This document shows, piece after piece, positions 40,698-59,384 of a DNA stretch of 64,000 nucleotides. Source of the stretch: an uncultured Spirochaetota bacterium (GTDB taxonomy: Bacteria; Spirochaetota; Spirochaetia; SZUA-6; Fen-1364); contig CAWAHW010000002.1 of NCBI GenBank assembly GCA_963781885.1, positions 480,001-544,000 on the forward strand, in the 5' to 3' direction. Position numbers and translations under genes: made by a program. The stretch's first letter is position 1. Every line of letters begins with the position of its first letter. The notes below the pieces were generated by a model. The model did no database searches, was not told where the DNA came from, and was given only the letters and a program-made list of their open reading frames with translations.

Positions 40698-40714
40698 GGA
40701 CATTTCTAAAGAGT
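40698..40714 (+). promoter_or_regulatory. Conserved 17-bp motif, copy 1 (upstream of the uxaE-like operon)
   Basis: GGACATTTCTAAAGAGT; 29 nt upstream of -10 TACACT (40744-40749, preceded by an extended TG). Confidence 0.8.
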
Positions 40715-40759
40715 ATCCCCTCCCCACGGCCCGGCCTCCCTGCTACACTTCCCGGGGCC

Positions 40760-42460
40760 ATGCTCTTCGGAAAGTTTGACATCAATCCATCCACATCTCC
40801 CGGTGTGCTCGATACCGCCACGTGGGACCGCGCGGCTGCCGCGGCGGAGATACACCGGCACCGGGAGCGCTGGGCGTCCCTGTCGGATGCCGTCGGGGAT
40901 GCCGCCACCTCGCGTCGACCGGGAACACCCGAGGCGACCGTCATCAAGGTGTCCGGGTCCTCGCGCGAGGTGATCGCGCTTGCCGCCCTTTCCGACGGGC
41001 AGCGGGTCTTCCTCCAGATCGGTGGACTTTCGAAGGGCAGCGATCTCGGGCGCCCCTTCTTCCAGCTCCAGCTCCGCGAAAAACTCCTCCTGGCCGCCTA
41101 CCCCGCGGACGCGGCGGTGATCGATCGTTTCTGCACGACGCTTGCGCTTTCCAACGGGCCGCGCGCACTCGGTGGAACGCCGAGGCTGGGAATCGGCACG
41201 CGCATGACGACGCGGCTCTGGCCGGGCATATTCGCCGCCATGCAGCGGCACGGCTTTGCAGCGAATGCCATCCAGAACTCCGTGCGGGAGCTGAACCTTC
41301 TTTCGGATTTGACGAGCGGAGCCGCCCCCGAGCGCAACTACGCGAGCGGTTTCGGCACGATCGAAAGCGGGTACACGGGAAGCACATTCGAGGGCCTCTG
41401 GGTGGCGGGAGTCCTGGCGGCCCTGGAGTACGCGCATCCCCTGACCTATGGGGCGGACGCGGATCACATCCAGGTCAAGCGCGCCGACACCGGTCTTGCC
41501 CGCGCGCGGCGCGTGGTCGATGCCGCCCGGTACTACACGTTCTTCACGCTCGACGTGGCCGACGTGCTGGCCTACGACGCCATCGGTCGAACCGGTGCGG
41601 GCGACGAGCTTCTGCGTCAGAGCATCCCGGCGGACAAAGAGCGGCGCGACGTGCTTTCTTTCCATCGCCAGGCCTCCGGAGACGATCCGGACCTCATCGG
41701 CAGATGCGTGGGGAAGTTCTGGAGGGCGCTCGATGCCGCCGCTCGGCTTGCGGACCACATCGCAGCGTTGCGGGGCGCGGCGGGCTTCGACCTGGAGTTC
41801 GCGTTCGACGAGCACCCGCCCGAAATCGCGGGTCCGGCGTGCATCAGCAGCGACCAGGAGGTGGCATTCGTCGCCCGCGAAATCCGCAGGCGCGGCCTGC
41901 CGGTGACGCATATCGCGCCGAATTTCGGGGTCGAAAAGGGCTTCGACTATCGCCTTGCCGACGGCTATGCGGGACTCTCGACGCGCGTGGCGTCGCATTT
42001 CCGCATCGCCGAGGAGACAGGCTTTCTCCTGGACGTGCATTCGGCCGACGACCTCTCGGGCGAGGCGCGGCGCGCGATCCGTGGCGCCACGGGGGGCAGG
42101 ATGCACTTCAAGATCTCCCCCATGCTCCATTTCATCTTTGCCGAGACCGTGCGCGACAGGCATCCCGATCTCTTCCGCCGCTGGTGGGAGGACTGCCGGG
42201 CCTATGCCATGGAGGAAGCCCAGCGCGGATCCGCATTCGCGGCGGAATGTCTTGCACAGCTCCCCGCGCAGGCGGCGCCGTCACCCACGCAGGACGTCTT
42301 CCGCCATTTCTTTTTTGCCTATCCCGGTCGGCGCGACAGCGCGGGGCGTTTCATCAACCGCGAGGCATTCTACACGCTGCCGGCCGACACCTATGCCGAT
42401 TACCAGGAGAGGATCGCGGCCCACCTGGGCATGCTCGCGGAGGACCTCTTCAATTCCTAG
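40760..42460 (+). CDS. Tagaturonate/fructuronate epimerase (UxaE) family protein
   Basis: LGIGTR, QNSVRE, YGADADH, YTFFTLD, FDLE.AFDE, THIAPNF..EKG.DY, H.K. Confidence 0.7.
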   Translation: MLFGKFDINPSTSPGVLDTATWDRAAAAAEIHRHRERWASLSDAVGDAATSRRPGTPEATVIKVSGSSREVIALAALSDGQRVFLQIGGLSKGSDLGRPFFQLQLREKLLLAAYPADAAVIDRFCTTLALSNGPRALGGTPRLGIGTRMTTRLWPGIFAAMQRHGFAANAIQNSVRELNLLSDLTSGAAPERNYASGFGTIESGYTGSTFEGLWVAGVLAALEYAHPLTYGADADHIQVKRADTGLARARRVVDAARYYTFFTLDVADVLAYDAIGRTGAGDELLRQSIPADKERRDVLSFHRQASGDDPDLIGRCVGKFWRALDAAARLADHIAALRGAAGFDLEFAFDEHPPEIAGPACISSDQEVAFVAREIRRRGLPVTHIAPNFGVEKGFDYRLADGYAGLSTRVASHFRIAEETGFLLDVHSADDLSGEARRAIRGATGGRMHFKISPMLHFIFAETVRDRHPDLFRRWWEDCRAYAMEEAQRGSAFAAECLAQLPAQAAPSPTQDVFRHFFFAYPGRRDSAGRFINREAFYTLPADTYADYQERIAAHLGMLAEDLFNS

Positions 42461-42470
42461 GAGGCAGGCC

Positions 42471-43148
42471 ATGCAGGTATTTCTGGACAGCGCAGACCCT
42501 CGGGAGATCGTGCAGGCGCGCACATGGGGCGCCATTGACGGAGTGACGACCAACCCGTCCCTGATTTCCCGCGCCGGCCCCGACATGCAGAAGACGCTGC
42601 GGGCCGTGCTGGATGCATCGCCGGGACCCGTGCTCTGCCAGGCCATCGGGTGGGACGATCCTGATTCACTTTCGGGTCAGGCGCGTTGGCTGCACGCCTT
42701 TTCCGACCGCATCATTGTGAAGCTCCCGATGAGCCCGGCCGGCATCATGGCGGTCCAGAAGCTGAAGCGGGAATCACCGGGCATGAAGATCGCCGTCACG
42801 CTCGTCTCATCCATCGCCCAGGCGTACCTCGTGGCAAAGGCGGGCGCGGATATCGTGGCGATATTCAATGGGCCGCTGGAGCAGGCGCTGGACCAGGACG
42901 TGGACCTTGTCGCGCCCGTGCGCACGATGTACGCGAACTACGGCTTCGCAACGAAGATACTTTCGTGCGGACGCTACCCCCGATCCTTCGGGGACTTCGC
43001 GGTGGCCGGGACGGACATCTGCACCATGCGCTTCGAGTTCCTCACGCTTCTCTACGAGCATCCTTTCACGGAGAAGCGCATGCGCGGCTTCATGGACGAC
43101 TGGCGGAAGGTTTTCGCCGATCGGACGTGGCCGGTCGCGGGCGCCTGA
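42471..43148 (+). CDS. Transaldolase/fructose-6-phosphate aldolase family protein (divergent)
   Basis: FLDSA, GVTTNPSLI, Schiff-base IIVKLP, HPFT. Confidence 0.85.
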   Translation: MQVFLDSADPREIVQARTWGAIDGVTTNPSLISRAGPDMQKTLRAVLDASPGPVLCQAIGWDDPDSLSGQARWLHAFSDRIIVKLPMSPAGIMAVQKLKRESPGMKIAVTLVSSIAQAYLVAKAGADIVAIFNGPLEQALDQDVDLVAPVRTMYANYGFATKILSCGRYPRSFGDFAVAGTDICTMRFEFLTLLYEHPFTEKRMRGFMDDWRKVFADRTWPVAGA

Positions 43149-43149
43149 G

Positions 43150-43932
43150 ATGGGCGTGCTCGAGCAGTTCCGGCTGGACGACCGGGTGGCCGTCGTGACG
43201 GGCGGGGCGCGCGGCCTGGGCAGACAGCACGCGCGCGCACTCGCGGAGGCCGGGGCGCGCGTCGCCATTTGCGACCTGCTGGATGAGGCAGGCGAGCGGA
43301 CCCGCGCGGAGCTTGCCGCGATGGGGCGGGACGCATTCTACGGGCGCGCGGACGTGACCGCGGGCGGGGAGCTGGATGCCTTCGTCGAGGAGGTGATGCG
43401 CAGGTTCGGGCGCATCGACATCCTCGTGAACAACGCCGCCATGCCGTCGGAGGGCGTCTCGTTGTCGGACGTCTCCGATGAGCTGTGGCGGAAGATCGTG
43501 GATACAAATCTCTCCAGCATGTTCTACGTCGGCAAGCGCGTCGCCGCGCGCATGCGCGCCGCCGGCCGCGGCAGCATCATCAATATCGGCTCCATCAATT
43601 CCTTCATCATCAGCAACATCGCGCCGCGCCACAACGTCACCTACTGCGTGGCAAAGGCCGGCGTCGCGCAGCTCACGCGCGGCATGGCCGCCGAATGGGC
43701 GACGCAGGGCATCCGCGTGAACGCGCTCGCCCCGGGGTACATCCTCACCGACCAGACGGCCGCGAGCGCGAAGATACCCGAGGTCTACGCGCGCAACGTG
43801 GCGAACACCCCCATGGGCCGGTACGGGCGGCTGGACGAGCTTTCCGGCGCGCTGGTCTTCCTTGCGTCGGATGCCTCGTCATTCATGACGGGGAGCATCC
43901 TCACCCTGGACGGCGGCTACACGATCTGGTAG
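43150..43932 (+). CDS. SDR oxidoreductase (KduD/gluconate 5-dehydrogenase-like)
   Basis: TGGARGLG, NNA, YCVAK, VNALAPG, DGG. Confidence 0.9.
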   Translation: MGVLEQFRLDDRVAVVTGGARGLGRQHARALAEAGARVAICDLLDEAGERTRAELAAMGRDAFYGRADVTAGGELDAFVEEVMRRFGRIDILVNNAAMPSEGVSLSDVSDELWRKIVDTNLSSMFYVGKRVAARMRAAGRGSIINIGSINSFIISNIAPRHNVTYCVAKAGVAQLTRGMAAEWATQGIRVNALAPGYILTDQTAASAKIPEVYARNVANTPMGRYGRLDELSGALVFLASDASSFMTGSILTLDGGYTIW

Positions 43933-43938: not shown

Positions 43939-44793
43939 TCATCCCTTGAGGCCGGTCGTCGCCATTCCCTGGATGATCCGTCTCTGGAATATGTAGTAGA
44001 AAATGACCTGGGGGATCAGGACGATGATGACCGCGCGCATGACGGCCGCCACGTCCATCCCGTACTGCTGCTTGAAGAAGGCCGCCGCGAGCGGGATCGT
44101 GAAATTCCTGATATTGCTCAGGATGACCGATGCCAGCGTCCACTCGTTCCAGGCCCAGATGAAATTGAAGATGATGAGCGTCGTTATCACCGGCGCGATC
44201 AGGGGGGCGACGATCCCGAAGATCAGCTTGGGGAGGCGGCATCCATCCATGATCGCGGCCTCTTCCAGCTCCAGGGGAACCGACTTGAGACCGCCGACGA
44301 AGACAAGCGTGTTGAAGGGCAGCGATCCCGCGATATAGGGAAGAGGGAGGCCGAAGATGCTGTCGATGCCAAGGCCGATTGGCTTCAGCTTGAGCGCGAG
44401 CAGGTAGATCGGGAAAAGGACAATGAAAAGGGGAACCGCATTGCCCATCAGGAAGAGGAAATAGAAGAAGTTGCCGAATGCGGCGTGCCGGTGGTGCAGA
44501 CGGGCGATGGCGAACGAGCTCAGGAAGTTGATCAGGATGCAGCCGATCGTCGTGAGGGAGGCCACGATCACGCTGTTCTTGAACAGCGTGGGCATATGGG
44601 ACTTCGAGAAGGTGTCGGCGTAGAGGGAGAGGTCCCATTTGTTCGGCAGGCTGAGCGGCGCGTTGTAGATTTCGGTGTTTCCCTTGAAGGAGAGGATGAA
44701 GCCCCAGACGAAGGGAAAGATCATGAAGGCGCAGATGATGAGGGAAACGAGGATCAGCAGCAGGCGCGTCGGGATTGTGGTGCCACTCGACAT
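43939..44793 (-). CDS. Carbohydrate ABC permease (MalG type)
   Basis: ELEEAAIMDG, FIWAWNE, QRRIIQG. Confidence 0.92.
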   Translation of the reverse strand: MSSGTTIPTRLLLILVSLIICAFMIFPFVWGFILSFKGNTEIYNAPLSLPNKWDLSLYADTFSKSHMPTLFKNSVIVASLTTIGCILINFLSSFAIARLHHRHAAFGNFFYFLFLMGNAVPLFIVLFPIYLLALKLKPIGLGIDSIFGLPLPYIAGSLPFNTLVFVGGLKSVPLELEEAAIMDGCRLPKLIFGIVAPLIAPVITTLIIFNFIWAWNEWTLASVILSNIRNFTIPLAAAFFKQQYGMDVAAVMRAVIIVLIPQVIFYYIFQRRIIQGMATTGLKG

Positions 44794-44802
44794 GTTCTGC
44801 TC

Positions 44803-45756
44803 CTACGCCTCGACCCGCTTCGCGGTGATCCGCAGGAATCCAATGGAAAACACCATCATGACCAGGAACATGAGCAGCGCGACGGCCGATGCGTAGCCCG
44901 CCCTGCGCTCGGCGAGAAATATGTCGTACAGGAGGGTGCCGATATTGTGCGACTTGAAGTTCGGCTGGCCGTTGGTCAGGATATAGACGGTCTGCATGCT
45001 CTGGATGGCGTTGATGAAGACGTACACCGCGACGATCTTCAATGTCTCCTTGAGCATCGGCAGCGTGATGTAGCGGGTCTTCTGGGCCGAAGAGGCGCCG
45101 TCCATCTTCGCCGCCTCATAGAGCTCGGTCGGTATCAGCTTGAGACCGGCAAGAAAGAGCACCGAATAGAAGCCCAACGCTTTCCAGCTCTCGATGACGG
45201 CCACCGTGTAGGGTGTCAATGTCGGCCCGCCGATCCACTTGAAGGCAAGAAAGCCCATGTGATTGGCCTTGAGGAAGATGTTGAGCAGGCCGATCCCCGG
45301 ATCGACGACGAAGAACCATACGAGCGTGGTGATGATGGGCGATAGGATATAAGGCGTGAAAACCAGGAGCTTCACGACGCCGTTTCCCCGGAAATCCCTG
45401 TTGATGAAGAGCCCCAGCAGGAATGAAACGGGGAGGATGAGGGCAAGCTCGAGCACGGTGATGATGAGCGTATTCTTCAGCGCGATGGAGAGGTGGCCGT
45501 CGCTTGCCATCGATACGAAGTTGGCCACCCCGACAAACTTGCCGGGATAGAAGCTCGACTTGTCCGTGAATGCGATGGCCAGCGAGTAGACGATGGGATA
45601 CAGCACGTAGACGCAGAAAAATGCCAGGGAGGGAAGGAGCAGGAGGAGCTTTATCCACCGCTTGCAGTACATGAACACCGATGTCCTCCTCTGTTCTCCC
45701 GCGGCGGCCATTCGCGAGAGAGCCGAATCCTTGCGGATTCGGCTCTCGTTCATCAA
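44803..45756 (-). CDS. Carbohydrate ABC permease (MalF type)
   Basis: ELYEAAKMDGA, ITLPML, GYASA. Confidence 0.92.
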   Translation of the reverse strand: MMNESRIRKDSALSRMAAAGEQRRTSVFMYCKRWIKLLLLLPSLAFFCVYVLYPIVYSLAIAFTDKSSFYPGKFVGVANFVSMASDGHLSIALKNTLIITVLELALILPVSFLLGLFINRDFRGNGVVKLLVFTPYILSPIITTLVWFFVVDPGIGLLNIFLKANHMGFLAFKWIGGPTLTPYTVAVIESWKALGFYSVLFLAGLKLIPTELYEAAKMDGASSAQKTRYITLPMLKETLKIVAVYVFINAIQSMQTVYILTNGQPNFKSHNIGTLLYDIFLAERRAGYASAVALLMFLVMMVFSIGFLRITAKRVEA

Positions 45757-45775
45757 ATCGAACCCCGATGCCGGA

Positions 45776-47119
45776 CTATTTCGGCAGCTTGGGGATTACC
45801 TCGTCGATGGCGGCATCCATCTTGGCGAGCTCGCCCGGGATGTCGGCCGCGGTCATGGAGCCGTTCATGAGGCTGTTCTCCAGGTTGCCGCGGATCGTTC
45901 CCCAGCCCTGGGTCCACAGGTCACCGTTGGAACTCCACTGCCAGTAGGGCGCGTAGTCGGAGTTCATAAGACCTGTATAGGACTTATCCTGGATCATCGC
46001 AACCTGCTGCTTCATGATCGGTCCGAGGCCCGACATGTCGATCTTCACGTTCACGGGCATGATCGTGCCGACCTTCAGTGCGAGCTGTGCTCCTTCCGAG
46101 CTGTAGCGCCACTTGTTGAAGGCGACGATGGCCTTGAGCTTGTCCGGATCACTGGCGGCAGTCGCGCCGATCCCGAATGCGTTCCCGACCGACCGGACGA
46201 TCCGCTTCTGGTTGTACTTCTTCGCCACCGGGTCGGTGAAGGCGAAGCCGAAGTTGAACACGTAGTTCTTCTCCAGCGGCTGGCCGATGATCTTGCCCAG
46301 CTGATCGGAGGGAAGGGTGATCATCGCCGCGTTGCCGGCGTTGAACATGGCGCACATCTGGTCGAAGCTCATGGTGGCGTTGTCCTCGGGGAAGGCCCCC
46401 AGGGCGCGCAGCTCCGCCTCGCGGTAGTATGCCTGGCCGAAATCGGCGTCGACGGCCTTCAATGTGTGGTCCTTGAACACCGCCTTGGCCTGTTCCCAGA
46501 TCCCGTACTGCATGAGCCACGCCTGGTAGCCCCAGACCGCCCATCCTTCCTTGGATCCGTACGCGATCGTCACGACGCCGTTCTTCTTGAACGTCGCGAC
46601 GCAGTTCTTGAGCTGATCGAATGTGGTCGGTATCTTCAGTCCGTACTTGTCAAAGAGGGCCTTGTTGTAGACCCATCCCTGGACCTGCATCTCGGTGGGG
46701 AATCCGGCGATCTTGCCGCCCGCGCTGGTGAGGTTGGTCAAGGCGCCTTCCACGAAGGTTGCCTTGAAGGCCGGGTCATAGAAGGGAGTGCAATCGACGA
46801 CCGACGTGGTCCTGTTGAGGAAGTCGACTAGGTGGGTTCCGTTGTCCCAGAACATGTCGGGCATGGAGTTGGACTGGGCCATGATCTCAAGCTTCTGCTG
46901 CAGGGTGTCGTGGTCCACGATCTGGTAATCGACGGAGATGTTGGGGTACTTCTTCATGTAGGTATCGAGTGTCACCCCGACCATGTCCGTTTCCCGGCCG
47001 ATGAAAGTCATGTAGCTGAAGTTTACCTTCTTTGTGGTTCCCTGTGCCTGCGCCCCGACTGTGGCGGAAAGCGTCACAAGGCACAGCAGGACCAAGAGAG
47101 CGGTGACGAGTTTTTTCAC
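45776..47119 (-). CDS. Carbohydrate ABC substrate-binding protein
   Basis: Signal peptide, YNKALFDKYGLKIPTTFDQL. Confidence 0.9.
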   Translation of the reverse strand: MKKLVTALLVLLCLVTLSATVGAQAQGTTKKVNFSYMTFIGRETDMVGVTLDTYMKKYPNISVDYQIVDHDTLQQKLEIMAQSNSMPDMFWDNGTHLVDFLNRTTSVVDCTPFYDPAFKATFVEGALTNLTSAGGKIAGFPTEMQVQGWVYNKALFDKYGLKIPTTFDQLKNCVATFKKNGVVTIAYGSKEGWAVWGYQAWLMQYGIWEQAKAVFKDHTLKAVDADFGQAYYREAELRALGAFPEDNATMSFDQMCAMFNAGNAAMITLPSDQLGKIIGQPLEKNYVFNFGFAFTDPVAKKYNQKRIVRSVGNAFGIGATAASDPDKLKAIVAFNKWRYSSEGAQLALKVGTIMPVNVKIDMSGLGPIMKQQVAMIQDKSYTGLMNSDYAPYWQWSSNGDLWTQGWGTIRGNLENSLMNGSMTAADIPGELAKMDAAIDEVIPKLPK

Positions 47120-47300: not shown

Positions 47301-47452
47301 ATCCTAAATCATCGCCCCCCATTGTCAACTGAGATTTCGCCAGACACTCGATAGAAATGTCCCCTCGCGCTCCGCGCGCGCCGCGCGGGAAGGACATTTC
47401 AATCGAGTCCGCGCGCCGATTCTTGATGACGGCGAGCCTCCGGCATTAAGGT
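47301..47452. promoter_or_regulatory. Divergent promoter region with an inverted pair of 17-bp motifs (copies 2 and 3)
   Basis: ACTCGATAGAAATGTCC (47346-47362) and GGACATTTCAATCGAGT (47392-47408); minus-strand TTGACA-16-TAGGAT (47328..47301); plus-strand TTGATG-18-TAAGGT (47423..47452). Confidence 0.8.
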
Positions 47453-47493: not shown

Positions 47494-48147
47494 ATGGGAA
47501 TGAAAAGGGACGTCCTGGACGCCCTGCACGAAAGCGGCGTCGTCGCCGTCATCCGCACGGAGAATCCACGCGACCTCGCGGCGGTGGCGCGTGCGCTGCA
47601 CGCCGGCGGGGTGCGCTGCGTCGAAATCACGATGACCGTGCCCGGCGCGCTGGACATCATCCGCGACGCCTGCGCCACGCTCTCCGGCATCGACGTGTTC
47701 ATCGGGGCGGGCACGGTGCTCGACGCGGTGAGCGCGCGGGCGGCCATCATCGCGGGGGCCCGGTTCGTCGTGGGTCCCGGCTTCGACCCGGAGATCGTGA
47801 AGACGTGCGCCCTGTACGGCGTCATGAATATGCCGGGCGCCTTCACACCGCAGGAGATCCTCTCCGCCTGGAAGGGCGGTGCGGACGTCGTGAAGGTGTT
47901 TCCGGCCGATCTTGGCGGTCCGGATTACATCAAGACGGTGCGCGAGCCGCTTCCCCAGATATCGCTCCTGCCGACAAAGGGCATCGACTTTTCCACCGCG
48001 GGGGCCTATATCAAGGCAGGTGCCTTTGCCGTCGGGGCGGGCGGCGCGCTGGTGAGCAAGGCGCTTATTGCCGCGGGGGACTACGATCGGATCACCGCCA
48101 ATGCGCGCGAGCTCGCCCGGATCGTGCGCGAGGCGAGGAAAGGGTAG
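47494..48147 (+). CDS. eda: KDPG/KHG aldolase, copy 1
   Basis: EITM, GAGTV, PGAFTPQE, VKVFP. Confidence 0.92.
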   Translation: MGMKRDVLDALHESGVVAVIRTENPRDLAAVARALHAGGVRCVEITMTVPGALDIIRDACATLSGIDVFIGAGTVLDAVSARAAIIAGARFVVGPGFDPEIVKTCALYGVMNMPGAFTPQEILSAWKGGADVVKVFPADLGGPDYIKTVREPLPQISLLPTKGIDFSTAGAYIKAGAFAVGAGGALVSKALIAAGDYDRITANARELARIVREARKG

Positions 48148-48151
48148 GCCG

Positions 48152-49195: not shown

Positions 49196-49294
49196 AATAA
49201 GTTTTCTGGCGCCAAAAGGCGACGTTTTGCCTATAATTAAAAGATATTTCGTGAAAAAACAGTGAGAATCTCTCGAAAATAATCTTGTTAACAA

Positions 49295-50566: not shown

Positions 50567-51223
50567 ATGGCGATTCGCTCACAGGAAGTCCTCGCGGCAC
50601 TCGAGGAAACAGGTGTCGTGGCGGTGATCCGGGTCGAAGACCCCGAGGGCCTCGCCGATGTCTCGCGCGCCCTGTGCGCGGGCGGCGTGCGCCTGGTGGA
50701 GATCACGATGACGGTCCCCGGTGCTCTCGCGCTGATCGCCTCGGTGAGCGCATCGCTCGGGAATGCCGTGTTTATCGGCGCCGGCACCGTCCTGGACGCG
50801 GCTGCCGCGCGCATGGCGATACTCGCCGGCGCGCGTTTCGTCGTCGGGCCCAGCTTTGACCCTGACGTCGTGGCCATGTGCAAGCTCTACGACACGCCCG
50901 TCATGCCGGGCTGCCTCACGCCGACGGAGATCGCCGCGGCGTGGAAGGCGGGCGCCGACGTCGTGAAGATCTTCCCCGGCCGGGTGGGCACCCCCGAGTA
51001 TTTCCAGGACCTCAAGGGCCCCTTCCCCCAGGTGAGGATGATGCCCACGGGCAATGTCGACGTCGTGACGACGCCCGCGTACATCAAGGCGGGCGCGGTT
51101 GCCGTCGGCGTCGGAAAAGCGCTCGTCGACCCGCGCGCCATGGCGGCGCGCCAGTACAAGGTCATCACCGACAATGCCATCGCGTTCCGACGGCTCGTGC
51201 AGGACGCGCGGAGCCGCACCTGA
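50567..51223 (+). CDS. eda: KDPG/KHG aldolase, copy 2
   Basis: EITM, GAGTV, PGCLTPTE, VKIFP, PTG. Confidence 0.92.
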   Translation: MAIRSQEVLAALEETGVVAVIRVEDPEGLADVSRALCAGGVRLVEITMTVPGALALIASVSASLGNAVFIGAGTVLDAAAARMAILAGARFVVGPSFDPDVVAMCKLYDTPVMPGCLTPTEIAAAWKAGADVVKIFPGRVGTPEYFQDLKGPFPQVRMMPTGNVDVVTTPAYIKAGAVAVGVGKALVDPRAMAARQYKVITDNAIAFRRLVQDARSRT

Positions 51224-52251
51224 TGGCAAAAAAGGTCGTCCTCTTCGGGGAGCTCCTCATGCGGCTGGCGCCGAAAGGCGTCGACAGGTTCGTGCAGGCG
51301 GAGGAGTTCGACGTCCGCTACACCGGCGCCGAGGCGAACGCCGGTGTGTCGCTCGTCAATTTCGGCATGGAAGCCTATGCCGTATCAAAGGTGCCGGACA
51401 CCGAGATCGGCCAGGCCTGCATCAACTACCTGAGCCGGTTCCGGGTCAACACGGACCACGTGGCGCGCGGCGGGGAGCGGCTGGGCATCTTCTTCCTGGA
51501 GACCGGCGCGGCCCAGCGCGCCTCGAAGATCATCTACGACCGCGGGCACAGCGCCATCCGCGATTCAACACCGTCCGACTACGATTGGGAGCGCATCTGC
51601 GAAGGCAAGGACTGGTTTCATTTCTCCGGCACCGCGCCGGCGCTCGGCGAGGGGGTGCAGAGGGTGCTGGAGGACGGCCTGGTCGTCGCCCGGCGGCGGG
51701 GGCTCACGGTCAGCTGCGATCTGAACTACCGGGCAAAGCTATGGTCGCCGGCCGAGGCCCAGCGCGTGATGACCGGGTTCATGCGCCACGTCGACGTGCT
51801 CATCGGCAACGAGGAGGACGCGGAGAAGGTATTCGGCATCGCGGCGCCCGGCAGCGACGTGGGCAAGGGAAAGATCGTCGGCGACTCCTATCGCCACGTC
51901 GCCGTGGAGCTCGTGCGGCGTTTCGGGTTCCAGAAGGTGGCCACGACCCTGCGGGAGAGCGTTTCCGCGTCCGTGAACGGGTGGGCGGCCATGCTGTCCG
52001 ACGGCACGACGCATGTCACGAGCCGCCGCTACGAGATCGCCCCAATCGTGGATCGGGTGGGCGCCGGCGACTCCTTCACCGGCGGTCTCATCTTTGCGCT
52101 CCTGTCGGGCTACGACCTGCAACGCAGCGTCGATTTCGCCGCGGCAGCATCCTGCCTGAAACATTCGATCGCCGGGGACTTCAATCTCGCTTCCGTCCGG
52201 GAGGTGGAGGCGCTGATCGCCGGTGAAGCGTCGGGAAGGGTGCAGAGATGA
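51223..52251 (+). CDS. kdgK: 2-dehydro-3-deoxygluconokinase (PfkB family), copy 2
   Basis: FGELLMRL, GAEAN, DLNYRAKLW, DRVGAGDSF. Confidence 0.9.
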   Translation: MAKKVVLFGELLMRLAPKGVDRFVQAEEFDVRYTGAEANAGVSLVNFGMEAYAVSKVPDTEIGQACINYLSRFRVNTDHVARGGERLGIFFLETGAAQRASKIIYDRGHSAIRDSTPSDYDWERICEGKDWFHFSGTAPALGEGVQRVLEDGLVVARRRGLTVSCDLNYRAKLWSPAEAQRVMTGFMRHVDVLIGNEEDAEKVFGIAAPGSDVGKGKIVGDSYRHVAVELVRRFGFQKVATTLRESVSASVNGWAAMLSDGTTHVTSRRYEIAPIVDRVGAGDSFTGGLIFALLSGYDLQRSVDFAAAASCLKHSIAGDFNLASVREVEALIAGEASGRVQR

Positions 52252-52327
52252 AAGGGGTCACCGCGCAGGCTCGAAGCCTGCCATGGGCTAAAGGCACCGG
52301 CCGCTGACGGCAGGGGAGGAGAAACCA

Positions 52328-53155
52328 ATGGGCTCGATGGAAGGCATGCGTGTCCTCGTGACAGGGGCGGGCACGGGGATCGGGAAGGGAATCGCGGAAG
52401 AGTTTGCGCACGAAGGGGCAACCGTGGTGCTCCATTATTCGCACAGCTCGGCCGGGGCAATCGCCGCGGCGCACGCCATCGTTGCCGCCGGCGGAAAGGC
52501 GGAGGCGATGCCCGCGGACTTTTCCCGACGCGACGAGGTGCGGGGGCTTGCCGCGCGCGCGCTTTCATTCCTGGGGGGAATCGACGTCCTGGTCAACAAC
52601 GCCGGGGTGTCCCTCACATTGCCCTTCGAGCAGGTCACCGGCGAGCAGTTCGACCTGCTCTATGCCGTGAATGTCAGCGCGCCCTTTTTCCTCACGCAGG
52701 CGCTCCTTCCGCGTCTCTGCGAGTCGAAGAACGCGTCGGTCATCAACCTGAGCTCCATCCACGCCTACGAGGGCGCCCCCGAGTACGCCGTCTACGCGGG
52801 CACGCGCGGTGCCATCCTGGCTTTCACGCGGGAGCTCGCCATCGAGCTCGCACCGCTCGGCATACGGGTGAACGGCATCGCCCCGGGATCGACCAACGTG
52901 GAAAGCCATCGGAAGGTCGCGTCGAGCGCCGAGCTCGAAGCGGAGGGCCGGGGGATACCCGTCGGCAGGCTTGGAACGCCGCAGGACATGGGCAAGGTCG
53001 CCGTATTCCTCGCGTCGGAGGGAGCGCGCTTCATCGTCGGACAGACCATCGTGGTCGACGGCGGCACCATCTCGTGGATGCCGTTCGGGGAGCAGTTCCG
53101 ACGCCGTGCGCCGAAAGAGTACCGCCTGGGCCAGGGCTACGTGCCGGGGATGTAG
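52328..53155 (+). CDS. SDR oxidoreductase
   Basis: TGAGTGIG, NNAG, YAGTR (Arg at the usual Lys), VNGIAPG. Confidence 0.88.
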   Translation: MGSMEGMRVLVTGAGTGIGKGIAEEFAHEGATVVLHYSHSSAGAIAAAHAIVAAGGKAEAMPADFSRRDEVRGLAARALSFLGGIDVLVNNAGVSLTLPFEQVTGEQFDLLYAVNVSAPFFLTQALLPRLCESKNASVINLSSIHAYEGAPEYAVYAGTRGAILAFTRELAIELAPLGIRVNGIAPGSTNVESHRKVASSAELEAEGRGIPVGRLGTPQDMGKVAVFLASEGARFIVGQTIVVDGGTISWMPFGEQFRRRAPKEYRLGQGYVPGM

Positions 53156-53198: not shown

Positions 53199-54101
53199 CT
53201 ACAACAGCTCGTTCGCCGTGAGCGCCCGCTTGATCTCGGTCGCCTGCTCGGGGCCCATGGGCTCCAGCGGCGCGAGCGCCTTGCCCGCGCCGATGCCCAT
53301 GAGCGAGGCGGCGTGCTTGAAGCCCGTTACCCAGCTCGCCGGCCCGCCGACAAGCGGCGCGCGCACGGGCTGCAACTTGGCGAATAGCCGCGTCACGGCC
53401 TCCCAATCCGCCCGTGTGGCCGCATCGAAAAGCCGCACGAACAGCGCAGGGGCGATGTTGGCCGTCCCCGGCACGATGCCCGCGGCGCCTGCCTTCAGCT
53501 CTTCCACCAGCGTGACCTCGTCACCGGCAAGCACGGAAAGTCCCACATCCTTGCCGCGTTTCACGAGATCGCGGAAATAGGCGACGTCGCCCGAGCTTTC
53601 CTTGCAGTACCGTATCCATCCGCGCCGCGCCATGTCGCAGACCATTCCCACGTCCAGCGCGACACCCGTGCTCTGGGGGATGTTGTAGGCGATCATCTCC
53701 ATGTCGCCGGCCGCCTCGCGCGCCGCGGCGTAAAGACGAAGCTGCTCGGAGGCGCTCCTGGCTGCAATGTAGAAGCTTGGTGTCAGGACGAAGCCGCGGC
53801 ACCCGACCTGGCGCAGCACGCGCACCTTCTCGATGACGCGGGAGGCCGACGTCTCCATGACGCCCGTCACGAGGCTCGTTTTCGATCCGCACTCGTCGTA
53901 TGCGATCTCCGCCAAGCGCTGCCATTCCGCGAACGTGAGGAGGGGTCCTTCACCCGCGGTGCCCCCGGCGAAAATCCCGCGCACACCCGCGGCGATGAGC
54001 CGGCGTATCAGGGACCGCAGCCCCTGCTCGTCCACCCGCTCCTGCGCATTGGTGGGTGTGATGATGGGAACGACGACGCCATGCAGAGACTGTTTGTCCA
54101 C
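53199..54101 (-). CDS. DapA/NanA family class I aldolase/dehydratase
   Basis: GTAGEG, YNIPQSTG, KESSGD. Confidence 0.88.
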   Translation of the reverse strand: MDKQSLHGVVVPIITPTNAQERVDEQGLRSLIRRLIAAGVRGIFAGGTAGEGPLLTFAEWQRLAEIAYDECGSKTSLVTGVMETSASRVIEKVRVLRQVGCRGFVLTPSFYIAARSASEQLRLYAAAREAAGDMEMIAYNIPQSTGVALDVGMVCDMARRGWIRYCKESSGDVAYFRDLVKRGKDVGLSVLAGDEVTLVEELKAGAAGIVPGTANIAPALFVRLFDAATRADWEAVTRLFAKLQPVRAPLVGGPASWVTGFKHAASLMGIGAGKALAPLEPMGPEQATEIKRALTANELL

Positions 54102-54146
54102 GATAACCTCCCTGGAGCGCCGGGCTTCAGACCGGGCGCGCCGGCA

Positions 54147-55292
54147 TCATGACGAAAGCGGGTATCGCCCCGCGTTCCTCACCTCGTCGCACATGGCAAC
54201 GATATTCTGAGGCGGCACATCGGGCTGGATGCAGTGCACGGCCGCGGCGACATAGCCGCCCCCCGGGGCAAGATCGCCGATGCGGCGCCGGACCTCGGCG
54301 CGCACGTCAGCTTCGCTGCCGTGGGGAAGGACGGTCTGGGTATCGATGGCGCCGCAGAAGGAGAGCCGGCCGCCGAACTCCCGTTTCAGACGGGCGGTGT
54401 CGGCGAGGTCCTTTGCCGAGACCTGCACGGGGTTCAGCAGGTCGACACCGACATCGGCCAGGTCCCCGATGAGCGGATAGATGTTGCCGCAGGAATGGAA
54501 GAAGACCTTCGCGCGGGTACCCTCGTGAATCGCCGCGAGCGTCTCCGCCTGGTGGGGCTTGACGAGCCGTCGGTATAGCGCGGGCGCCATGAATGTCGAG
54601 TCCTGCGTGCCCAGGTCATCGCCCGTGAGTGCGATGTCGACAAAGTCTCCCACCTGACGGAAGAGCTCGCGGAGATACGGGATCATGCGGATCTTGAACT
54701 CGTGCATGAGCGCAAGGAAGAAGTCCTCGTCCGCCGCCAGATCCATCAGGCACTCGGAAAGGCCCCGCATGAGGTATGCCTGCTCGAAGAGAGTGACGCC
54801 CGTCATGAGGATGCAGGCTTTGCCGGACTGCTGGATCGCCCGGCAGCGCGCGGCCAGGCCTTCGAAACGGGACGGCGCCGACAGATCGGGCCAGGGGTAA
54901 CGGGGCAGATCCTCAATGCGCGCGTTGCGCAGCGGAGGCTCGATCACCTCGAAGTAGCCGGTGCCCGGGTTGCGCGTCCAGGTGCAGCCCCAGTCGTCGA
55001 CCAGCTCGTCCGGCGAGACGTCGCGGCGAAGCGTGGATGCCGCGGGACCGGGCACGCAGGGGCGGCCGTCCGAGCCCAGGCGCTCCATCACCGCCTCGTC
55101 CATCCACGTGTACTGGAATTGCCGCGATATCCAGCGCAGGGGACCCGGCTCGATGCCAAGGTGCCTCGCAAGACGCGGGTAGCCGGGCCCCAGGACCGTG
55201 GTGGCACCCGACGTTCCGATGAAGAGAGGGACCCGGTCCGGCTCCTCGTGATTCAGCGCCATCGCCACGCGTTCGCGCGACGTCATGCCCAT
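54147..55292 (-). CDS. Uroporphyrinogen decarboxylase/MtaA-like protein
   Basis: MTSRERV..ALNHEEPDRVP, GDDLGTQ, FHSCG, LNPVQ, HCIQPDVP. Confidence 0.88.
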   Translation of the reverse strand: MGMTSRERVAMALNHEEPDRVPLFIGTSGATTVLGPGYPRLARHLGIEPGPLRWISRQFQYTWMDEAVMERLGSDGRPCVPGPAASTLRRDVSPDELVDDWGCTWTRNPGTGYFEVIEPPLRNARIEDLPRYPWPDLSAPSRFEGLAARCRAIQQSGKACILMTGVTLFEQAYLMRGLSECLMDLAADEDFFLALMHEFKIRMIPYLRELFRQVGDFVDIALTGDDLGTQDSTFMAPALYRRLVKPHQAETLAAIHEGTRAKVFFHSCGNIYPLIGDLADVGVDLLNPVQVSAKDLADTARLKREFGGRLSFCGAIDTQTVLPHGSEADVRAEVRRRIGDLAPGGGYVAAAVHCIQPDVPPQNIVAMCDEVRNAGRYPLSS

Positions 55293-55317
55293 TTGTGTCT
55301 CCTCTCCCCGCGCCGGC

Positions 55318-56445
55318 CTAGTAGGTCCCCATGGCAAGGCCCTTGTCCACGAAGTGCCGGTAGGTGGGGTAATCGACAAGGCTCGACACGCTGTGGTCCA
55401 CCTGCAGGATGTACCCGCTGCCGGCCATTGCTCCGGGAAGCTTGCGTGAAAGCTCCGCATCGACCACGGAAAGGTCATTCGTCTCCAGGGTCCGCGCATC
55501 CATGCCGCCGATCAGCGCGATCCTGTCCCCCACGTCCTTCTTGATCTTCAGCAGATCCATGCCGGCCTTCGTCTCGATCGGCTGGAGGCAGTCGATGCCC
55601 GCCTCCAGGAGGGACGGCAGCAGCGCTTCAACGAAGCCGTCGCAGTGGAGGATCACGGGAAGCCCCCGGCTGTGCGCGAAGTCGAAGAGTCTCTTGTGCG
55701 CGGGAAAAACGATCTGGCGATACATCGCGGGAGACATGAAGGGCTTGTTCTTGAACCCCAGGTCATCCCACACCCAGAGGCCATCGGGCAGGCCTTCTTT
55801 CGCGAAGAGTTGCTCAAGCAACCGGATCGTGACCGTGGCAAAGAGGTCGGCCATCTCGGTTACCCATGGCTCGTCGAGCGCCATCCCCATGAGCAGGTAC
55901 TCGTGCCCGCACATGGGTGACATGAGGTCGAAGGCGCCGACGACCCCGCAGGAGAGAAAGAGCTCCTGCCGGGCGCATTTCTCCCTCATCTGCCGGTAGC
56001 GGTCGGAGCGGATGCGGCGGGAATCCAGGCTGAGATTCGTGAGGTGCGGCTTGATGTGCTCCTCCCACCCCGCCCGGTCGCGCACCGTGAAGTCAACGTG
56101 CTCGGGAGCGCCCGACCCGTTCTTCAGCCAGCGCAGGAAGGCGCCGTTTCCGTCGCGGATCAGCTTTGCCGTGTCCGTTTCCTCCACGACGGCTTGCCCG
56201 GCGTCAAGGTCGGCCACCAGCTCCAGCACATTGCCCGGCATGGGAGTGATTTCCCCGCTTGTGCGACGGACGTCCAGGCCGAAATGATCGCTCACGTCCT
56301 CAGGCGCCTTGTACCAGCCCTGAGCGCACCACGTGTCGGCCGTCTCCCGCCAGAAGACTTCGAAGAGACCCACCCTGTCCACGGGCTGATGCTTCAGGAT
56401 CCTCGAGATGCGCTCCCTGCTCGTGAGGGGGGAAGCCTTTTTCAT
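55318..56445 (-). CDS. Uroporphyrinogen decarboxylase/MtaA-like protein
   Basis: TSRERI, WDDLG, LHCDG, LQPIE.KAGMD, DHSV. Confidence 0.88.
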   Translation of the reverse strand: MKKASPLTSRERISRILKHQPVDRVGLFEVFWRETADTWCAQGWYKAPEDVSDHFGLDVRRTSGEITPMPGNVLELVADLDAGQAVVEETDTAKLIRDGNGAFLRWLKNGSGAPEHVDFTVRDRAGWEEHIKPHLTNLSLDSRRIRSDRYRQMREKCARQELFLSCGVVGAFDLMSPMCGHEYLLMGMALDEPWVTEMADLFATVTIRLLEQLFAKEGLPDGLWVWDDLGFKNKPFMSPAMYRQIVFPAHKRLFDFAHSRGLPVILHCDGFVEALLPSLLEAGIDCLQPIETKAGMDLLKIKKDVGDRIALIGGMDARTLETNDLSVVDAELSRKLPGAMAGSGYILQVDHSVSSLVDYPTYRHFVDKGLAMGTY

Positions 56446-57533
56446 GGTGTTCGATCTCCTCTTTTTCGTGTCAGGGACGGCGATGCCCCCATCATGCGCG
56501 CGGCGAGGTGCTCGATGGGTGTTCGCGGTCCCCGGAAAAATCGCACGGTGCTCACGTCGTCGTACCGGTTTCTGCCGGTGTCCCCGCCGATGGCGGGCGC
56601 GTGATACTCCAGCTCGCTGAAGCTGCCCAGGGCCGCATTGTTCACGGCGCATGCCTGCACGGCGCAGGCGGGCGGACCGGATCGCGGCGTGTCGATGTAG
56701 AGGAGACCCGGGTCCACCGCGAAATCCCGCACGATGAGATCGGCGCGCCCGCCGTTCCCGTGCAGGTAGCCCACGCGACCCGTGACCGATTCAGGGGGCA
56801 GCCCGATCTTCTTGTCTCCCTGTCCCCGCATCGCCCACTGGACGAGCGCCTGCTGCCGCCCCACGTCCTCCGCGGGGATGAGACCGAAAAAAAGGACCGG
56901 TTCGGGGCGATCTTTCACGCCGAAGAGCATCACCCCGCCGTGGGGAAGCTGCAGGAGGTTCCAGAGCCCCACGGGGGTGCGCGGCGCGAGCTGCGTGACC
57001 TCGAGGGTGCAGCGCAGGGTGTAGCCGCAGGACAGGATCCCCTGCACCGGCAGATCGTTGCGCACGGCATCCGGGTCCATCGCTTCGACGCTTTTTGAAA
57101 GCGACAGCCCGACATCCTCGGCTGTGCGAAACGAGTGGAGGGAGAAGGAGGTGGACATGACCAGGCGTGTCGCCTCCCGGCGGCAGGTGAAGCTGCCGGG
57201 ATCGAATACGCGGGGCTGGAAGTAGCCTTCCTCCCTTGGGTAGCGCGGGAGGAAGAAATCCGCTTCGGGTGCAATCCAAGTGCGGTCACCGCCGGTATTG
57301 CACCATGCGCCTGATTCGAAGAGACGGCGCGCGCTGTCCGTCCGGTCCAGCGCGGAATTGTTCCAGAGGAAGCCCTCCTCCTCGGTTCCGGGAAAGACGC
57401 CCAGCACGCGCGCCCCATGGGGGAGCACGACGACGCGTGCGCCGTCCGGTGCACGGAGGATCTCGGCGGGCTTGCCTGCCTCGGCCAGCCGCGCGGCCAG
57501 GGCGGCGGTAGCCCCGTCAGACTTTGACGCCAT
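56442..57533 (-). CDS. Conserved hypothetical protein (galactose mutarotase-like fold, DUF6786-like)
   Basis: GARVLG, GGDRTWIAPE, FSELEYHAP; overlaps both neighbours in the operon. Confidence 0.6.
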   Translation of the reverse strand: MASKSDGATAALAARLAEAGKPAEILRAPDGARVVVLPHGARVLGVFPGTEEEGFLWNNSALDRTDSARRLFESGAWCNTGGDRTWIAPEADFFLPRYPREEGYFQPRVFDPGSFTCRREATRLVMSTSFSLHSFRTAEDVGLSLSKSVEAMDPDAVRNDLPVQGILSCGYTLRCTLEVTQLAPRTPVGLWNLLQLPHGGVMLFGVKDRPEPVLFFGLIPAEDVGRQQALVQWAMRGQGDKKIGLPPESVTGRVGYLHGNGGRADLIVRDFAVDPGLLYIDTPRSGPPACAVQACAVNNAALGSFSELEYHAPAIGGDTGRNRYDDVSTVRFFRGPRTPIEHLAARMMGASPSLTRKRGDRTP

Positions 57534-58485
57534 TCACGACGTTCGGCGGCTTGCCCCCGCGCAGCATGACGGCCACGGTCTCCGCGACGTCCGTGCGGAG
57601 CTTCAGACCCGAGGTCGGGCTGCCGGAGGCGCAGTGCGGGTTGATGAGCACGTTGTCGAGCTTCGCGAGCGGATGACCCGTCGGGATGGGCTCGGGATCC
57701 GTGACGTCCAGGGCGGCCCCCGCAAGGTGACCGCTCTGCAGCGCGGCGACAAGGTCGTCCGTCTTCACGAGTGTCCCGCGGGAGACATTGACCAGGAGCG
57801 AGCCGCGCTTCATCTTCGCGATGGACTGCGCGTTTATCATCTGCCGCGTCTCCGGCGTGCTCGGGCAATGGAGCGACACGAGGTCGCTCTGCGCGAAGAG
57901 CTCCTCCCGCGTCACGGGGATGAAGCCGTCCTTCTTGATGCGCCGCGCCTCCACGTGGGGGTCGGCCACGATGACGCGGCACTTGAACGGCGCCAGGCGG
58001 AGAGCCACCTCGCGGCCGATGCGGCCGTAGGCAACGATGCCGACGGTCATGTCCTTCAACGCGCGCATGTCCTTGATGTCCACCGCGAGACTCCAGCTTC
58101 CCGCGCGGATGCGCATCGCGTTCTGGCTGATGCGCCGCGTCATCTCCAGGATCATCGCCAGGGCGTGATCGGCAACCTCGTTCGTGCAATAGTCCGGCAC
58201 GTTGCAGACGGGTATCTTCTTCGCCGCGGCCGCGGCGAGATCGACATTGTCCACCCCGATGCCGTAGCGCACGATGACGCGGCACTTCTGCATCGCAGCG
58301 ATCACCTCCGCGGTGACGGGAGCGAACTGCGTGATCACGTAGTCGGCGTCTTTCACCAGCGCAACGAGGCCCGGCTTTTCCTTGCCGGTCTTCAGCGAGG
58401 TGAACTGGCAGCCCAGCGGCTCCAGTATTCCCTTTTCGATGTCCAGGACGTCAAAACCATAATCCGTCACGGCGACGATCGGCAT
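57517..58485 (-). CDS. D-2-hydroxyacid dehydrogenase (SerA/CtBP-like)
   Basis: RYGIGVDNVD, YGRIG, NVSRG, LDV..EP, PH. Confidence 0.92.
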   Translation of the reverse strand: MPIVAVTDYGFDVLDIEKGILEPLGCQFTSLKTGKEKPGLVALVKDADYVITQFAPVTAEVIAAMQKCRVIVRYGIGVDNVDLAAAAAKKIPVCNVPDYCTNEVADHALAMILEMTRRISQNAMRIRAGSWSLAVDIKDMRALKDMTVGIVAYGRIGREVALRLAPFKCRVIVADPHVEARRIKKDGFIPVTREELFAQSDLVSLHCPSTPETRQMINAQSIAKMKRGSLLVNVSRGTLVKTDDLVAALQSGHLAGAALDVTDPEPIPTGHPLAKLDNVLINPHCASGSPTSGLKLRTDVAETVAVMLRGGKPPNVVNGVKV

Positions 58486-58495
58486 GTTTCTTCTC

Positions 58496-59281
58496 TCACT
58501 TTCCCACGACAGGGTTGCGCAGCACGCCGATGCCCTCGATCTCCACCTCGAAGACGTCCCCCGGCCGCAACCACGTGGGCGGCGTCTGGGCGAATGCGCA
58601 TCCGGCCGGGGTGCCCGTGGAAAGGACGGAGCCCGGCAGGAGCGTCATTCCCTGGGACAGGTAGCTCACCAGGAAGGCGACGTCGAAGATGAGGTCCGCG
58701 GTGGAGGCGTCCTGCATCGTCTTTCCGTTGAGTCTCCCCTGGATGTGGAGATGCGTTGGATCGAGCTCCGTCTCGATCCAGGGACCAAGGGGACAGAAGG
58801 TATCGAACGATTTTGCCCGCGACCATTGGCCGTCCTTGTTCTGCACGTCGCGGGCGCTCACGTCGTTCGCGCAGGTGTAGCCGAAGACGTACTTCAGCGC
58901 ATCCTTGCGGTCCACGTTCCGCGCCGGCTTTCCGATCACGACGGCGAGCTCGGACTCGTAGTCGATCTGGCCGGGTGCGACGTGGGGAAGGACGATGGGC
59001 GACCCGGGATCGGTGACGCAGGAGGAGGACTTCATGAAGAGCAGCGGTTCCGTCGGGGGCGCCTCTCCGCCTTCGGCCGCGTGCGCCTTGTAGTTCCTGC
59101 CGAAGCAAAGAAGATTGACGGGGATGAGGGGCGCCAGGAGCTTCACGTCCGCCATCGGCAAGGGGCGGCCGTCCTTTTTCCAGTTGCCGAAAATGTCCCC
59201 GGCGATGGGCTGGGCCTTGTCGCCCTCCAGGATCGCGTGGACTACCGCGCCCTTGGCCGTTCGAATGCGTGAGATTTTCAT
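58496..59281 (-). CDS. Fumarylacetoacetate hydrolase family protein
   Basis: GRNY..H, DYESEL, NDVSARD, KSFDTFCPLGP, TGTPAG. Confidence 0.93.
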   Translation of the reverse strand: MKISRIRTAKGAVVHAILEGDKAQPIAGDIFGNWKKDGRPLPMADVKLLAPLIPVNLLCFGRNYKAHAAEGGEAPPTEPLLFMKSSSCVTDPGSPIVLPHVAPGQIDYESELAVVIGKPARNVDRKDALKYVFGYTCANDVSARDVQNKDGQWSRAKSFDTFCPLGPWIETELDPTHLHIQGRLNGKTMQDASTADLIFDVAFLVSYLSQGMTLLPGSVLSTGTPAGCAFAQTPPTWLRPGDVFEVEIEGIGVLRNPVVGK

Positions 59282-59323
59282 GCTGCCTCCGTCGTCATGA
59301 CACCGGCTGAGATATTCCCCGGT

Positions 59324-59384
59324 ACACTATTCCAACAGCCCCGAATGTCAACGGACGGCCCGCCCGCACTCTATAGAAATGTCC
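59324..59384 (-). promoter_or_regulatory. Conserved 17-bp motif, copy 4, plus sigma70 promoter of the FAH operon
   Basis: Minus strand GGACATTTCTATAGAGT (59384..59368), 16 nt, TTGACA (59351..59346), 16 nt, TAGTGT (59329..59324). Confidence 0.8.

Follow-up and report, generated by a model that had tools for sequence, protein, structure and literature searches.

In eukaryotes, the domestication of transposases as transcription factors that act at transposon-end sites is a textbook regulatory innovation: FHY3/FAR1, of Mutator-like origin, and SETMAR, at the terminal inverted repeats (TIRs) of Hsmar1, bind sites derived from TIRs. Bacterial catabolism of hexuronates and 2-keto-3-deoxygluconate (KDG) is governed by KdgR, UxuR and ExuR, regulators of the IclR, GntR and LacI families. 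Our literature survey, outside whose coverage most subscription journals fell, found no bacterial regulator of a metabolic regulon derived from a DDE transposase. The only bacterial parallel that it returned was TldR, which is described as a group of transposon-encoded, TnpB-like, nuclease-dead repressors domesticated as RNA-guided transcription factors (10.1101/2023.11.30.569447). Here we examined a 64,000-nt stretch of DNA from an uncultured Spirochaetota bacterium (assembly GCA_963781885.1, contig CAWAHW010000002.1, positions 480,001 to 544,000), hereafter the window. It carries TnpL, a homologue of IS1202/ISNCY-type insertion sequence (IS) transposases that has lost the catalytic DDE triad, amid an island of sugar-acid catabolic genes. 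We assign a probability of roughly 0.7 to the reading that TnpL is a domesticated transposase which now regulates transcription in the island, its operators being matches to IS ends, a proposal drawn from sequence comparison.

TnpL descends from a transposase of the IS1202 family, probably from one of the ISTde1 subgroup. Members of this subgroup of IS1202 (formerly ISNCY) have TGT ends and 15–17-bp target duplications, and the consulted passages of the family's description place a conserved region of the inverted repeats (IRs) "around position 20" and make no mention of subterminal repeats (10.1101/2022.12.17.520857). TnpL has the domain order of the family, namely a helix-turn-helix (HTH) region, an RNase H-like core and a C-terminal part, and matches the model NF033594 from end to end. 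Active relatives in our set share the TGT ends and, at 16–17 bp, the duplications of the subgroup as far as the consulted passages describe it, and the core of their IRs is the motif of the window. These ends and duplications fit the ISTde1 subgroup, and an Atlas search placed an "ISTde1 transposase" cluster among the nearest, a lead at the family level only. Unlike IS1202/ISTde1 elements, TnpL has no DDE triad, IRs or duplications, is present in a single copy at a fixed position in a catabolic operon, and is under purifying selection. Of the six defining features of the family it lacks five (model score, triad, IRs, duplications and mobility), and so it should not be filed as a transposase.

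The other described systems each share part of this picture. As with TldR, a bacterial transposon-encoded enzyme has lost catalysis and is proposed to act as a transcription factor; TldR is RNA-guided and derived from TnpB (RuvC), whereas TnpL comes from a DDE transposase, and its HTH units would contact DNA directly at copies of its own element's ends. Pfam and NCBIfam gave HTH and ISNCY/IS481-type matches only for TnpL, with no TnpB/RuvC-type match. The resemblance to FHY3/FAR1 and SETMAR lies in a retained DNA-binding domain, lost catalysis or mobility, and sites that are terminal repeats near host genes. Those eukaryotic factors regulate dispersed genes, while TnpL is bacterial and encoded within its proposed regulon, one compact catabolic island. 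Like KdgR, UxuR and ExuR, TnpL is a proposed dedicated regulator inside a kdgK-eda cluster with sites before each operon, but it has no homology to them: its HTH is of the transposase type (HTH_28/29/32), its site is asymmetric rather than palindromic, and Pfam matched no IclR, GntR or LacI DNA-binding domain in it.

The proposed operators are copies of a 17-bp motif, GGACATTTCWAWMGAGT. There are exactly four matches in the window, to which allowing up to two mismatches adds none, compared with a chance expectation of 0.02 and with 0 of 100 shuffles reaching four or more. All four are intergenic and each is directed at a downstream operon, as the original prediction had stated from the letters alone; a motif scan and Pfam confirmed both the sites and the operons named, and the minus-strand positions given there are the high coordinates of the sites (47346–47362 and 59368–59384). 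The complete assembly (4.64 Mb in seven contigs, 92.55% complete) holds six exact copies, or seven at up to one mismatch, all of them intergenic and gene-directed, and two further matches at two mismatches fall within open reading frames (ORFs). Because only intergenic, gene-directed copies occur genome-wide at up to one mismatch, the motif is both rare and promoter-bound. Further sites upstream of related operons had been predicted, including one upstream of the SDR-acoABC operon (SDR, short-chain dehydrogenase/reductase) beyond position 64000; more sites were found only upstream of such operons, and the SDR-acoABC site lies at 64183–64199. In window-equivalent coordinates, six of the seven sites span 40.7–65.3 kb, the seventh being on another contig, and sites cover every transcription unit from 40.7 to 66.5 kb. 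The sites are as follows.

40698..40714, plus strand: site 1, GGACATTTCTAAAGAGT, with the UxaE-like gene starting about 97 nt downstream
47346..47362, minus strand: site 2, GGACATTTCTATCGAGT, directed at the operon of a solute-binding protein (SBP)
47392..47408, plus strand: site 3, GGACATTTCAATCGAGT, directed at eda1-kdgK1
59368..59384, minus strand: site 4, GGACATTTCTATAGAGT, followed after 16 nt by TTGACA-16-TAGTGT and lying 87 nt ahead of the FAH start codon
64183..64199 (window-equivalent): site 5, GGACAATTCTAAAGAGT, 183 nt beyond the window end, in the intergenic region 64110–64227
65332..65348 (window-equivalent): site 6, 1.3 kb beyond the window end, before an Ldh_2 gene
Contig C4: site 7, before a pair of genes like those of ketol-acid reductoisomerase (KARI) and xylose isomerase

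Site 5 has the SDR-E1-E2 operon on one side and a URO-D-like gene on the other. Sites 2 and 3 form a divergent, outward-directed pair 29 nt apart. Our comparison set comprised 41 related genomes, and a TnpL orthologue is carried by five genomes: the window genome (G000), G005, G018, G019 and G017. The same type of divergent pair recurs in G005 and G018, and an orthologue of site 1 precedes the same operon in G005 and G019. Across the five genomes, 25 regulon sites gave the consensus agGGACATTTCtAaaGAGT, with flanks that are not conserved. The motif is asymmetric and directional, which rules it out as a palindromic operator. It was also rejected as a sigma-54 or extracytoplasmic function (ECF) promoter, as it is without GG-N10-GC and lies upstream of sigma-70-like boxes. 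Separately, GGACATTGTAGACTCC at 40546–40561, in the AT-rich spacer before a LivK-like gene, has the same first seven bases as the motif, probably by chance.

Downstream of the motif, an exact TTGACA lay at a distance of 14–20 nt in 14 of the 25 regulon sites, against 0–1 of 25 in control windows of equal width. It was followed by a spacer of 16–17 nt and a weak −10 box (TAGTGT, TAGGAT, TAGCGT or TATACT), an arrangement that puts the centre of the site near −60. One of these promoters begins 17 nt after site 2.

47301..47328, minus strand: sigma-70-like SBP promoter, TTGACA-16-TAGGAT

A consensus scan called this promoter (one found, 0.1 expected) and missed that of the FAH operon because its −10 box matches at three of six positions. 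In four-genome alignments of both promoters, the motif, the −35 and the −10 stand as conserved islands between diverged spacers. Each of the five TnpL genomes had two to nine motif matches in promoters of the same operons, despite shuffled operon order, and among the 41 genomes the motif occurred in promoters only where TnpL was present. In G019, the TnpL gene itself belongs to a long UxaE-like operon, which has one site at its head and extends to kdgK2-SDR. A search for the island in congeners lacking TnpL turned up UxaE-like genes only as 45–49% paralogues in other contexts (G006, G026, G027 and G033).

To relate the motif to IS ends, we scanned species-representative genomes, which yielded 80 loci; 56 were examined, comprising 50 DDE-intact loci, four DDE-less loci and two with an incomplete gene. 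The motif was present at the element ends of all 50 DDE-intact loci, and on both sides in 42 of them. These elements come from many phyla, with the 17-bp site conserved across at least nine. A typical intact layout has one minus-strand copy about 65 nt before the start codon and two tandem copies, at a 26-nt pitch, after the stop. No DDE-less locus (0 of 4) had the motif within 400 nt of the gene; all four had copies about 2 kb away, and in three close relatives these sit in promoters. Multi-copy elements in metagenome-assembled genomes (MAGs) of Hydrogenedentota gave exact element boundaries. Active elements were 1.33–1.60 kb long with TGT...ACA tips, and target duplications of 16–17 bp flanked 21 of the 27 for which tips were found (28 examined). 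The consensus of 70 ends from 35 elements includes TGTcaagACTCntTnaaAATGTCC, or TGTcaagACTCntTnaaAATGTCCcC in the full form read from the tip inward; it is the reverse complement of the window motif from 7 nt off the tip, and it repeats about 26 nt further in. The motif is thus the core of the terminal IR, matching over all 17 bp, with a subterminal repeat at both ends. The original prediction had placed repeats of this type at the ends of such elements, and the 50 intact relatives and the 70-end consensus bear this out.

Coincidental or convergent likeness to IS ends, with a conventional transcription factor encoded elsewhere as the true binder of the motif, is an explanation to which we attach little weight. 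In its favor, binding of the motif by TnpL is itself predicted from sequence, some small ORFs were left unclassified, and a LacI-family gene is present in the window at 4958–6046. Against it, the match to the family's IR core extends over all 17 bp, and the motif is asymmetric, unlike operators of the LacI, GntR and IclR families, which typically are not. Moreover, promoter copies are confined to genomes carrying TnpL, and Pfam found no conventional regulator in the scanned ORFs of the interval from about 12 to 73 kb. The claim that the window has no LacI/GntR/IclR-type regulator therefore held in the neighborhood of the cluster and failed for the window as a whole. The LacI-family gene, which lies beside a GH4 gene 35 kb from the cluster, was ruled out as the motif binder because it is distant and part of a GH4/ABC cluster. 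This region, 4958–7464 on the plus strand, has the LacI-family regulator directly upstream of a GH4 glycosidase and an ATP-binding cassette (ABC) transporter, and forms a separate, conventional sugar locus.

Ends of related elements also survive in genomes of the same order, where active relatives occur in G028 and G084–G087. In G028, four contig ends (L032, L038, L043 and L025) have an exact stretch of 86 nt in common, after which the flanks diverge. The stretch ends in GGACATTTCTAAAGAGT, 9 nt, GGACATTTTAAAGGAGT and then CTTGACA, and three other contig ends (L051–L053) show the mirror arrangement, ending in TTCAACA. Across these seven contigs the pattern is what a multi-copy element, here of IS1202/ISTde1 type, leaves when it interrupts an assembly, and the interior of the element was not present in the G028 assembly. 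Of the four G028 flanks that were aligned, three show TTGAC and TAnAnT-like boxes after the tip. In genomes without TnpL (G015, G001, G023 and G033), single motif matches were end remnants with a second motif and the tip directly after. One locus (L015, G033:C86:1-1566, at about 40–180) is a MITE-like miniature (miniature inverted-repeat transposable element) of about 130 bp, with a right-type and a left-type end separated by about 45 nt.

Such remnants raise the question of whether the motifs of the island are themselves eroded solo IS or MITE ends, serving as portable outward promoters or persisting as neutral relics, with TnpL an unrelated fossil that does not use them. This account draws on the fact that IS tips in the family end in an outward TTGACA, on the divergent outward pairs (47346/47392, and those of G018 and G005), which are arranged as the two ends of an element would be after it had shrunk, and on the existence of the ~130-bp miniature in G033. 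We nevertheless consider it improbable. True remnants elsewhere retain a second motif and the tip, whereas the 25 regulon sites differ from them in having kept the 17-mer alone. The TTGACA of the regulon sites stands 14–20 nt away rather than at 1 or 27 nt, and the 17-mer is conserved across species while the spacers have diverged. Finally, a fossil would not be expected from the purifying selection on TnpL, for which the ratio of nonsynonymous to synonymous substitution rates (dN/dS) is 0.107.

The TnpL gene and the box that precedes it lie at the center of the island.

49382..50542, plus strand: TnpL, DDE-less IS1202/ISNCY-type transposase homologue of 386 aa, intact ORF
49286..49300, plus strand: TGTTAACAATTGACA box in the AT-rich spacer before TnpL, conserved in four aligned genomes and unique in the genome

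We interpret the TGTTAACAATTGACA box as the putative −35 region of TnpL's own promoter. The prediction of an intact ISNCY/IS1202-like ORF with its HTH preserved stood up, with a match to NCBIfam NF033594 (ISNCY transposase) over positions 2–364 of 368 at 156.9 bits, short of the cut-off of 250, and with HTH_28/29/32 as the only Pfam matches and no rve domain. An AlphaFold model built from 35 sequences (predicted local distance difference test, pLDDT, 81.5; predicted template modeling score, pTM, 0.60) showed two N-terminal HTH units, an RNase H-like core and a C-terminal beta-barrel. Its best PDB matches in Foldseek were IstA (E 2e-13), TnsB, MuA and the integrases of Rous sarcoma virus and human immunodeficiency virus. 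The DDE positions are occupied by V139, Q199 and N249, so the suspected loss of the triad is real and extends to the whole clade. In alignment A3, all 13 active relatives have D/D/E (in VQMDGS, YTDRKN and GRVER), while none of the 18 DDE-less sequences is acidic at the first two positions and one has E at the third. TnpL has a transposase fold from which the chemistry is gone.

Its homologues, 167 proteins in our search, fell into two groups. The closer group consists of proteins of about 386 aa with at least 37% identity and no rve domain; the more distant one, at 32–37% identity and about 425–447 aa, includes many with PF00665 and is found mostly on contigs of 1.4–2 kb. A tree of 99 proteins, rooted at its midpoint only, separated 36 DDE-less from 63 active sequences by one branch (SH-aLRT 100), which is compatible with a single loss of catalysis. 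The HTH units are the part of TnpL most conserved with active relatives: they are 48% and 43% identical, as compared with 33% for the core and 24% for the C-terminus. Of the 27 columns of A3 that are invariant in both groups, 20 fall in residues 32–106. The segment HVPIVDGTDLR is clade-specific and invariant among the DDE-less proteins.

Could TnpL still reside in a mobile element, its ends missed or its movement driven in trans, or could the dead triad be an assembly artefact? Split genes do occur in these long-read-type MAGs (E1-alpha and an SBP here, E1-alpha and E2 in G018), which lends the artefact some plausibility. Still, the same substitutions recur in 18 DDE-less sequences from independent assemblies, the ORF is unbroken, element ends are absent from the 400 nt around the gene, and the position is fixed in five genomes. 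We regard both versions as very improbable.

Several observations indicate that TnpL is immobile and maintained. It is single-copy in its genome by tblastn and blastn, a search for inverted repeats around the ORF returned chance-level pairs only, and its GC content at third codon positions (0.81) is like that of host genes. Full-length relatives among the 41 genomes were 86% (G005), 55% (G018) and 51% (G019) identical, and a contig-end fragment in G017 was 59% identical. The orthologue comparison proposed alongside the original prediction revealed kdgK1-TnpL-(eda2)-kdgK2 synteny in all five genomes, that of G017 at a contig end, together with purifying selection. The dN/dS of 0.107, at a dS of 0.68, comes from one pair only (G000 versus G005) because other pairs were saturated; neighboring genes gave 0.06–0.16. 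Domain-wise values are rough, as the longer G005 ORF offset the segments (103, 143 and 74 codons aligned), while the whole-gene value is sound. The start of eda2 lies 24 nt beyond the TnpL stop, and the two are thus probably one transcription unit. The DDE-less clade was found only in genus g1 among 92 genomes of the order, and 400 other Spirochaetota genomes had no TnpL match at E ≤ 1e-60. A metagenome scan for more DDE-less loci gave, among the matches listed, only active-type copies at 30–37% identity.

Shortened or inactive forms of transposases can act as inhibitors, for example the Tn5 inhibitor, and this precedent suggests another role: TnpL might be a trans-dominant inhibitor that silences incoming IS1202/ISTde1-type elements at their ends, the promoter sites being incidental or decoys. 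The retention of an end-binding domain and transposase fold with loss of catalysis is what such a role would entail, and related active elements are present in the same order (G028, G084–G087). However, the window genome has no active copy, the TnpL gene sits inside a catabolic operon with which it is probably co-transcribed in five genomes, and the sites lie at a fixed distance, within the 14–20-nt range, from the −35 boxes of one functional island. An inhibitor function consequently seems unlikely to us.

We return to TnpL as a transcription factor. A single-copy, catalytically dead transposase homologue without ends, a motif identical to an IS end and one site per unit of the island together make TnpL most likely the island's dedicated transcription factor. 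In the mechanism that we propose, an ancestral transposase lost catalysis along with its own element ends and was kept as a host gene in a catabolic island. Its N-terminal double HTH would still recognize the 17-bp word of the IR core, now present as single copies before each unit of the island, and the two HTH units would probably read the GGACATTTC and AAGAGT halves of one asymmetric site. The TnpL gene would be transcribed both from a promoter of its own and by read-through of transcripts begun at the eda1 promoter, and the protein would control some seven promoters, all in a single catabolic island. Its activity may respond to an intermediate of the pathway by way of the remodelled core or the HVPIVDGTDLR segment. 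A site centre near −60 is the classical position of an upstream activator, which favors activation. Repression is equally possible because of the variable spacing, the perfect −35 paired with a weak −10, the site 28 nt from a start codon, and the tendency of transposases to repress at their own ends.

A number of points weigh against this proposal. Binding of TnpL to the sites, its effect on transcription and its modulation by pathway metabolites are all predicted, and since the HTH region is just 43–48% identical to that of active relatives, retained specificity is a presumption as well. The motif-to-−35 distance ranges over 14–20 nt and lacks strict helical phasing, which is unusual for a class I activator; the site at window-equivalent 64183 lies just 28 nt from a start codon; and no −35 is evident close to site 1. 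Because TnpL, the island and the motif are found together or not at all, their co-occurrence does not tell whether the binder is TnpL or the product of another island gene. The five TnpL genomes are close kin and mostly MAGs, and the 25 regulon sites represent about eight orthologous promoters in them, so the counts overstate independence. The window genome, 92.55% complete and searched except for 16,000 of its bases, could conceal an active copy or more sites. Outside the five genomes, a DDE-less homologue with 40% identity (L069) is divergent from a sugar SBP/permease operon, with a kdgK2-like gene near, and its locus has only weak motif-like words, TGACAGATCTAAAGAGT, two mismatches from the relaxed pattern.

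The genes of the island and its borders were assigned as follows, all by Pfam.

40811..43932, plus strand: operon of UxaE-like, transaldolase/fructose-6-phosphate aldolase (FSA)-like and SDR1 genes (PF16257, PF00923, PF13561)
43939..47119, minus strand: sugar ABC transporter, SBP (45776–47119) and two permeases (SBP_bac_1, BPD_transp_1 twice)
47494..49195, plus strand: eda1, aldolase of 2-keto-3-deoxy-6-phosphogluconate and 2-keto-4-hydroxyglutarate (KDPG/KHG), and kdgK1, PfkB kinase (PF01081, PF00294)
50567..53155, plus strand: eda2, kdgK2 and SDR2
53199..59281, minus strand: operon of FAH, 2-hydroxyacid dehydrogenase, DUF6786-like, two URO-D-like and DapA-like genes
59563..60012, plus strand: DUF386 (YhcH/YjgK/YiaL) gene (PF04074)
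60026..64000, minus strand, continuing past the window: E2 / E1-beta / E1-alpha (aco/pdh-like) and SDR3 operon

The frame of the UxaE-like gene is intact, with no stops and a start at about 40811. The DUF386 gene is divergent from the FAH operon, and site 4 lies in their common intergenic region. Identities of 58% between eda1 and eda2 and of 55% between kdgK1 and kdgK2 mark both as old paralogue pairs. Calling the island "sugar-acid" without naming a substrate is reasonable. At least four URO-D-like paralogues lie in or around it (29595–30746, 54147–56652 and L001:1228-2301), with more in G018 and G019, an abundance that is unusual for hexuronate/KDG catabolism. The ABC transporter at the divergent site pair (43939–47119, compared with 4839–8189 of L061 in G005) is 52–63% identical between G000 and G005, unlike the adjoining eda1 and kdgK1, which are 91–94% identical; it seems that a different transporter has taken the place of the old one and that the site pair was kept.

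Some genes of the window are broken. E1-alpha (62268–63567, minus strand) is split into two overlapping frames that cover positions 2–154 and 153–299 of the E1_dh profile, and the E1-beta ORF (61433–62266, minus strand) ends within Transketolase_C (positions 1–61 of 124). These breaks are frameshifts, either real or due to assembly error, and G018 has similar splits in E1-alpha and E2. At 7676–8571 on the plus strand, two adjacent ORFs, one of 185 aa and one of 127 aa, align with the initial and final portions of solute-binding-protein models and are probably a single gene interrupted by a frameshift.

A wider interpretation would extend regulation to the whole DDE-less clade, which comprises at least 36 proteins of one origin. 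These would be effector-responsive transcription factors with regulons wired by transposition, the core or the HVPIVDGTDLR segment acting as a sensor or as the contact to RNA polymerase. Insertions between operons, either of ends of the ancestral element or of its MITE-like miniatures, would each have left the 17-bp site, and the outward TTGACA tip of the element perhaps became the present −35. We view this extension as speculative and on balance rather unlikely; were it true, it would describe a bacterial catabolic regulon whose regulator and operators are entirely IS-derived.

For annotation, these results carry the warning that a sizeable clade labelled "transposase" is probably not mobile. 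TnpL and its site are a candidate protein–DNA pair that, with the 17-bp site conserved across at least nine phyla, could find use as an orthogonal part for gene regulation. Should TnpL bind its sites, the island would be a compact natural case of one protein, about seven operators and a known element of origin that carries those sites, from which the steps that lead from a selfish element to a host regulator could be reconstructed and tested.

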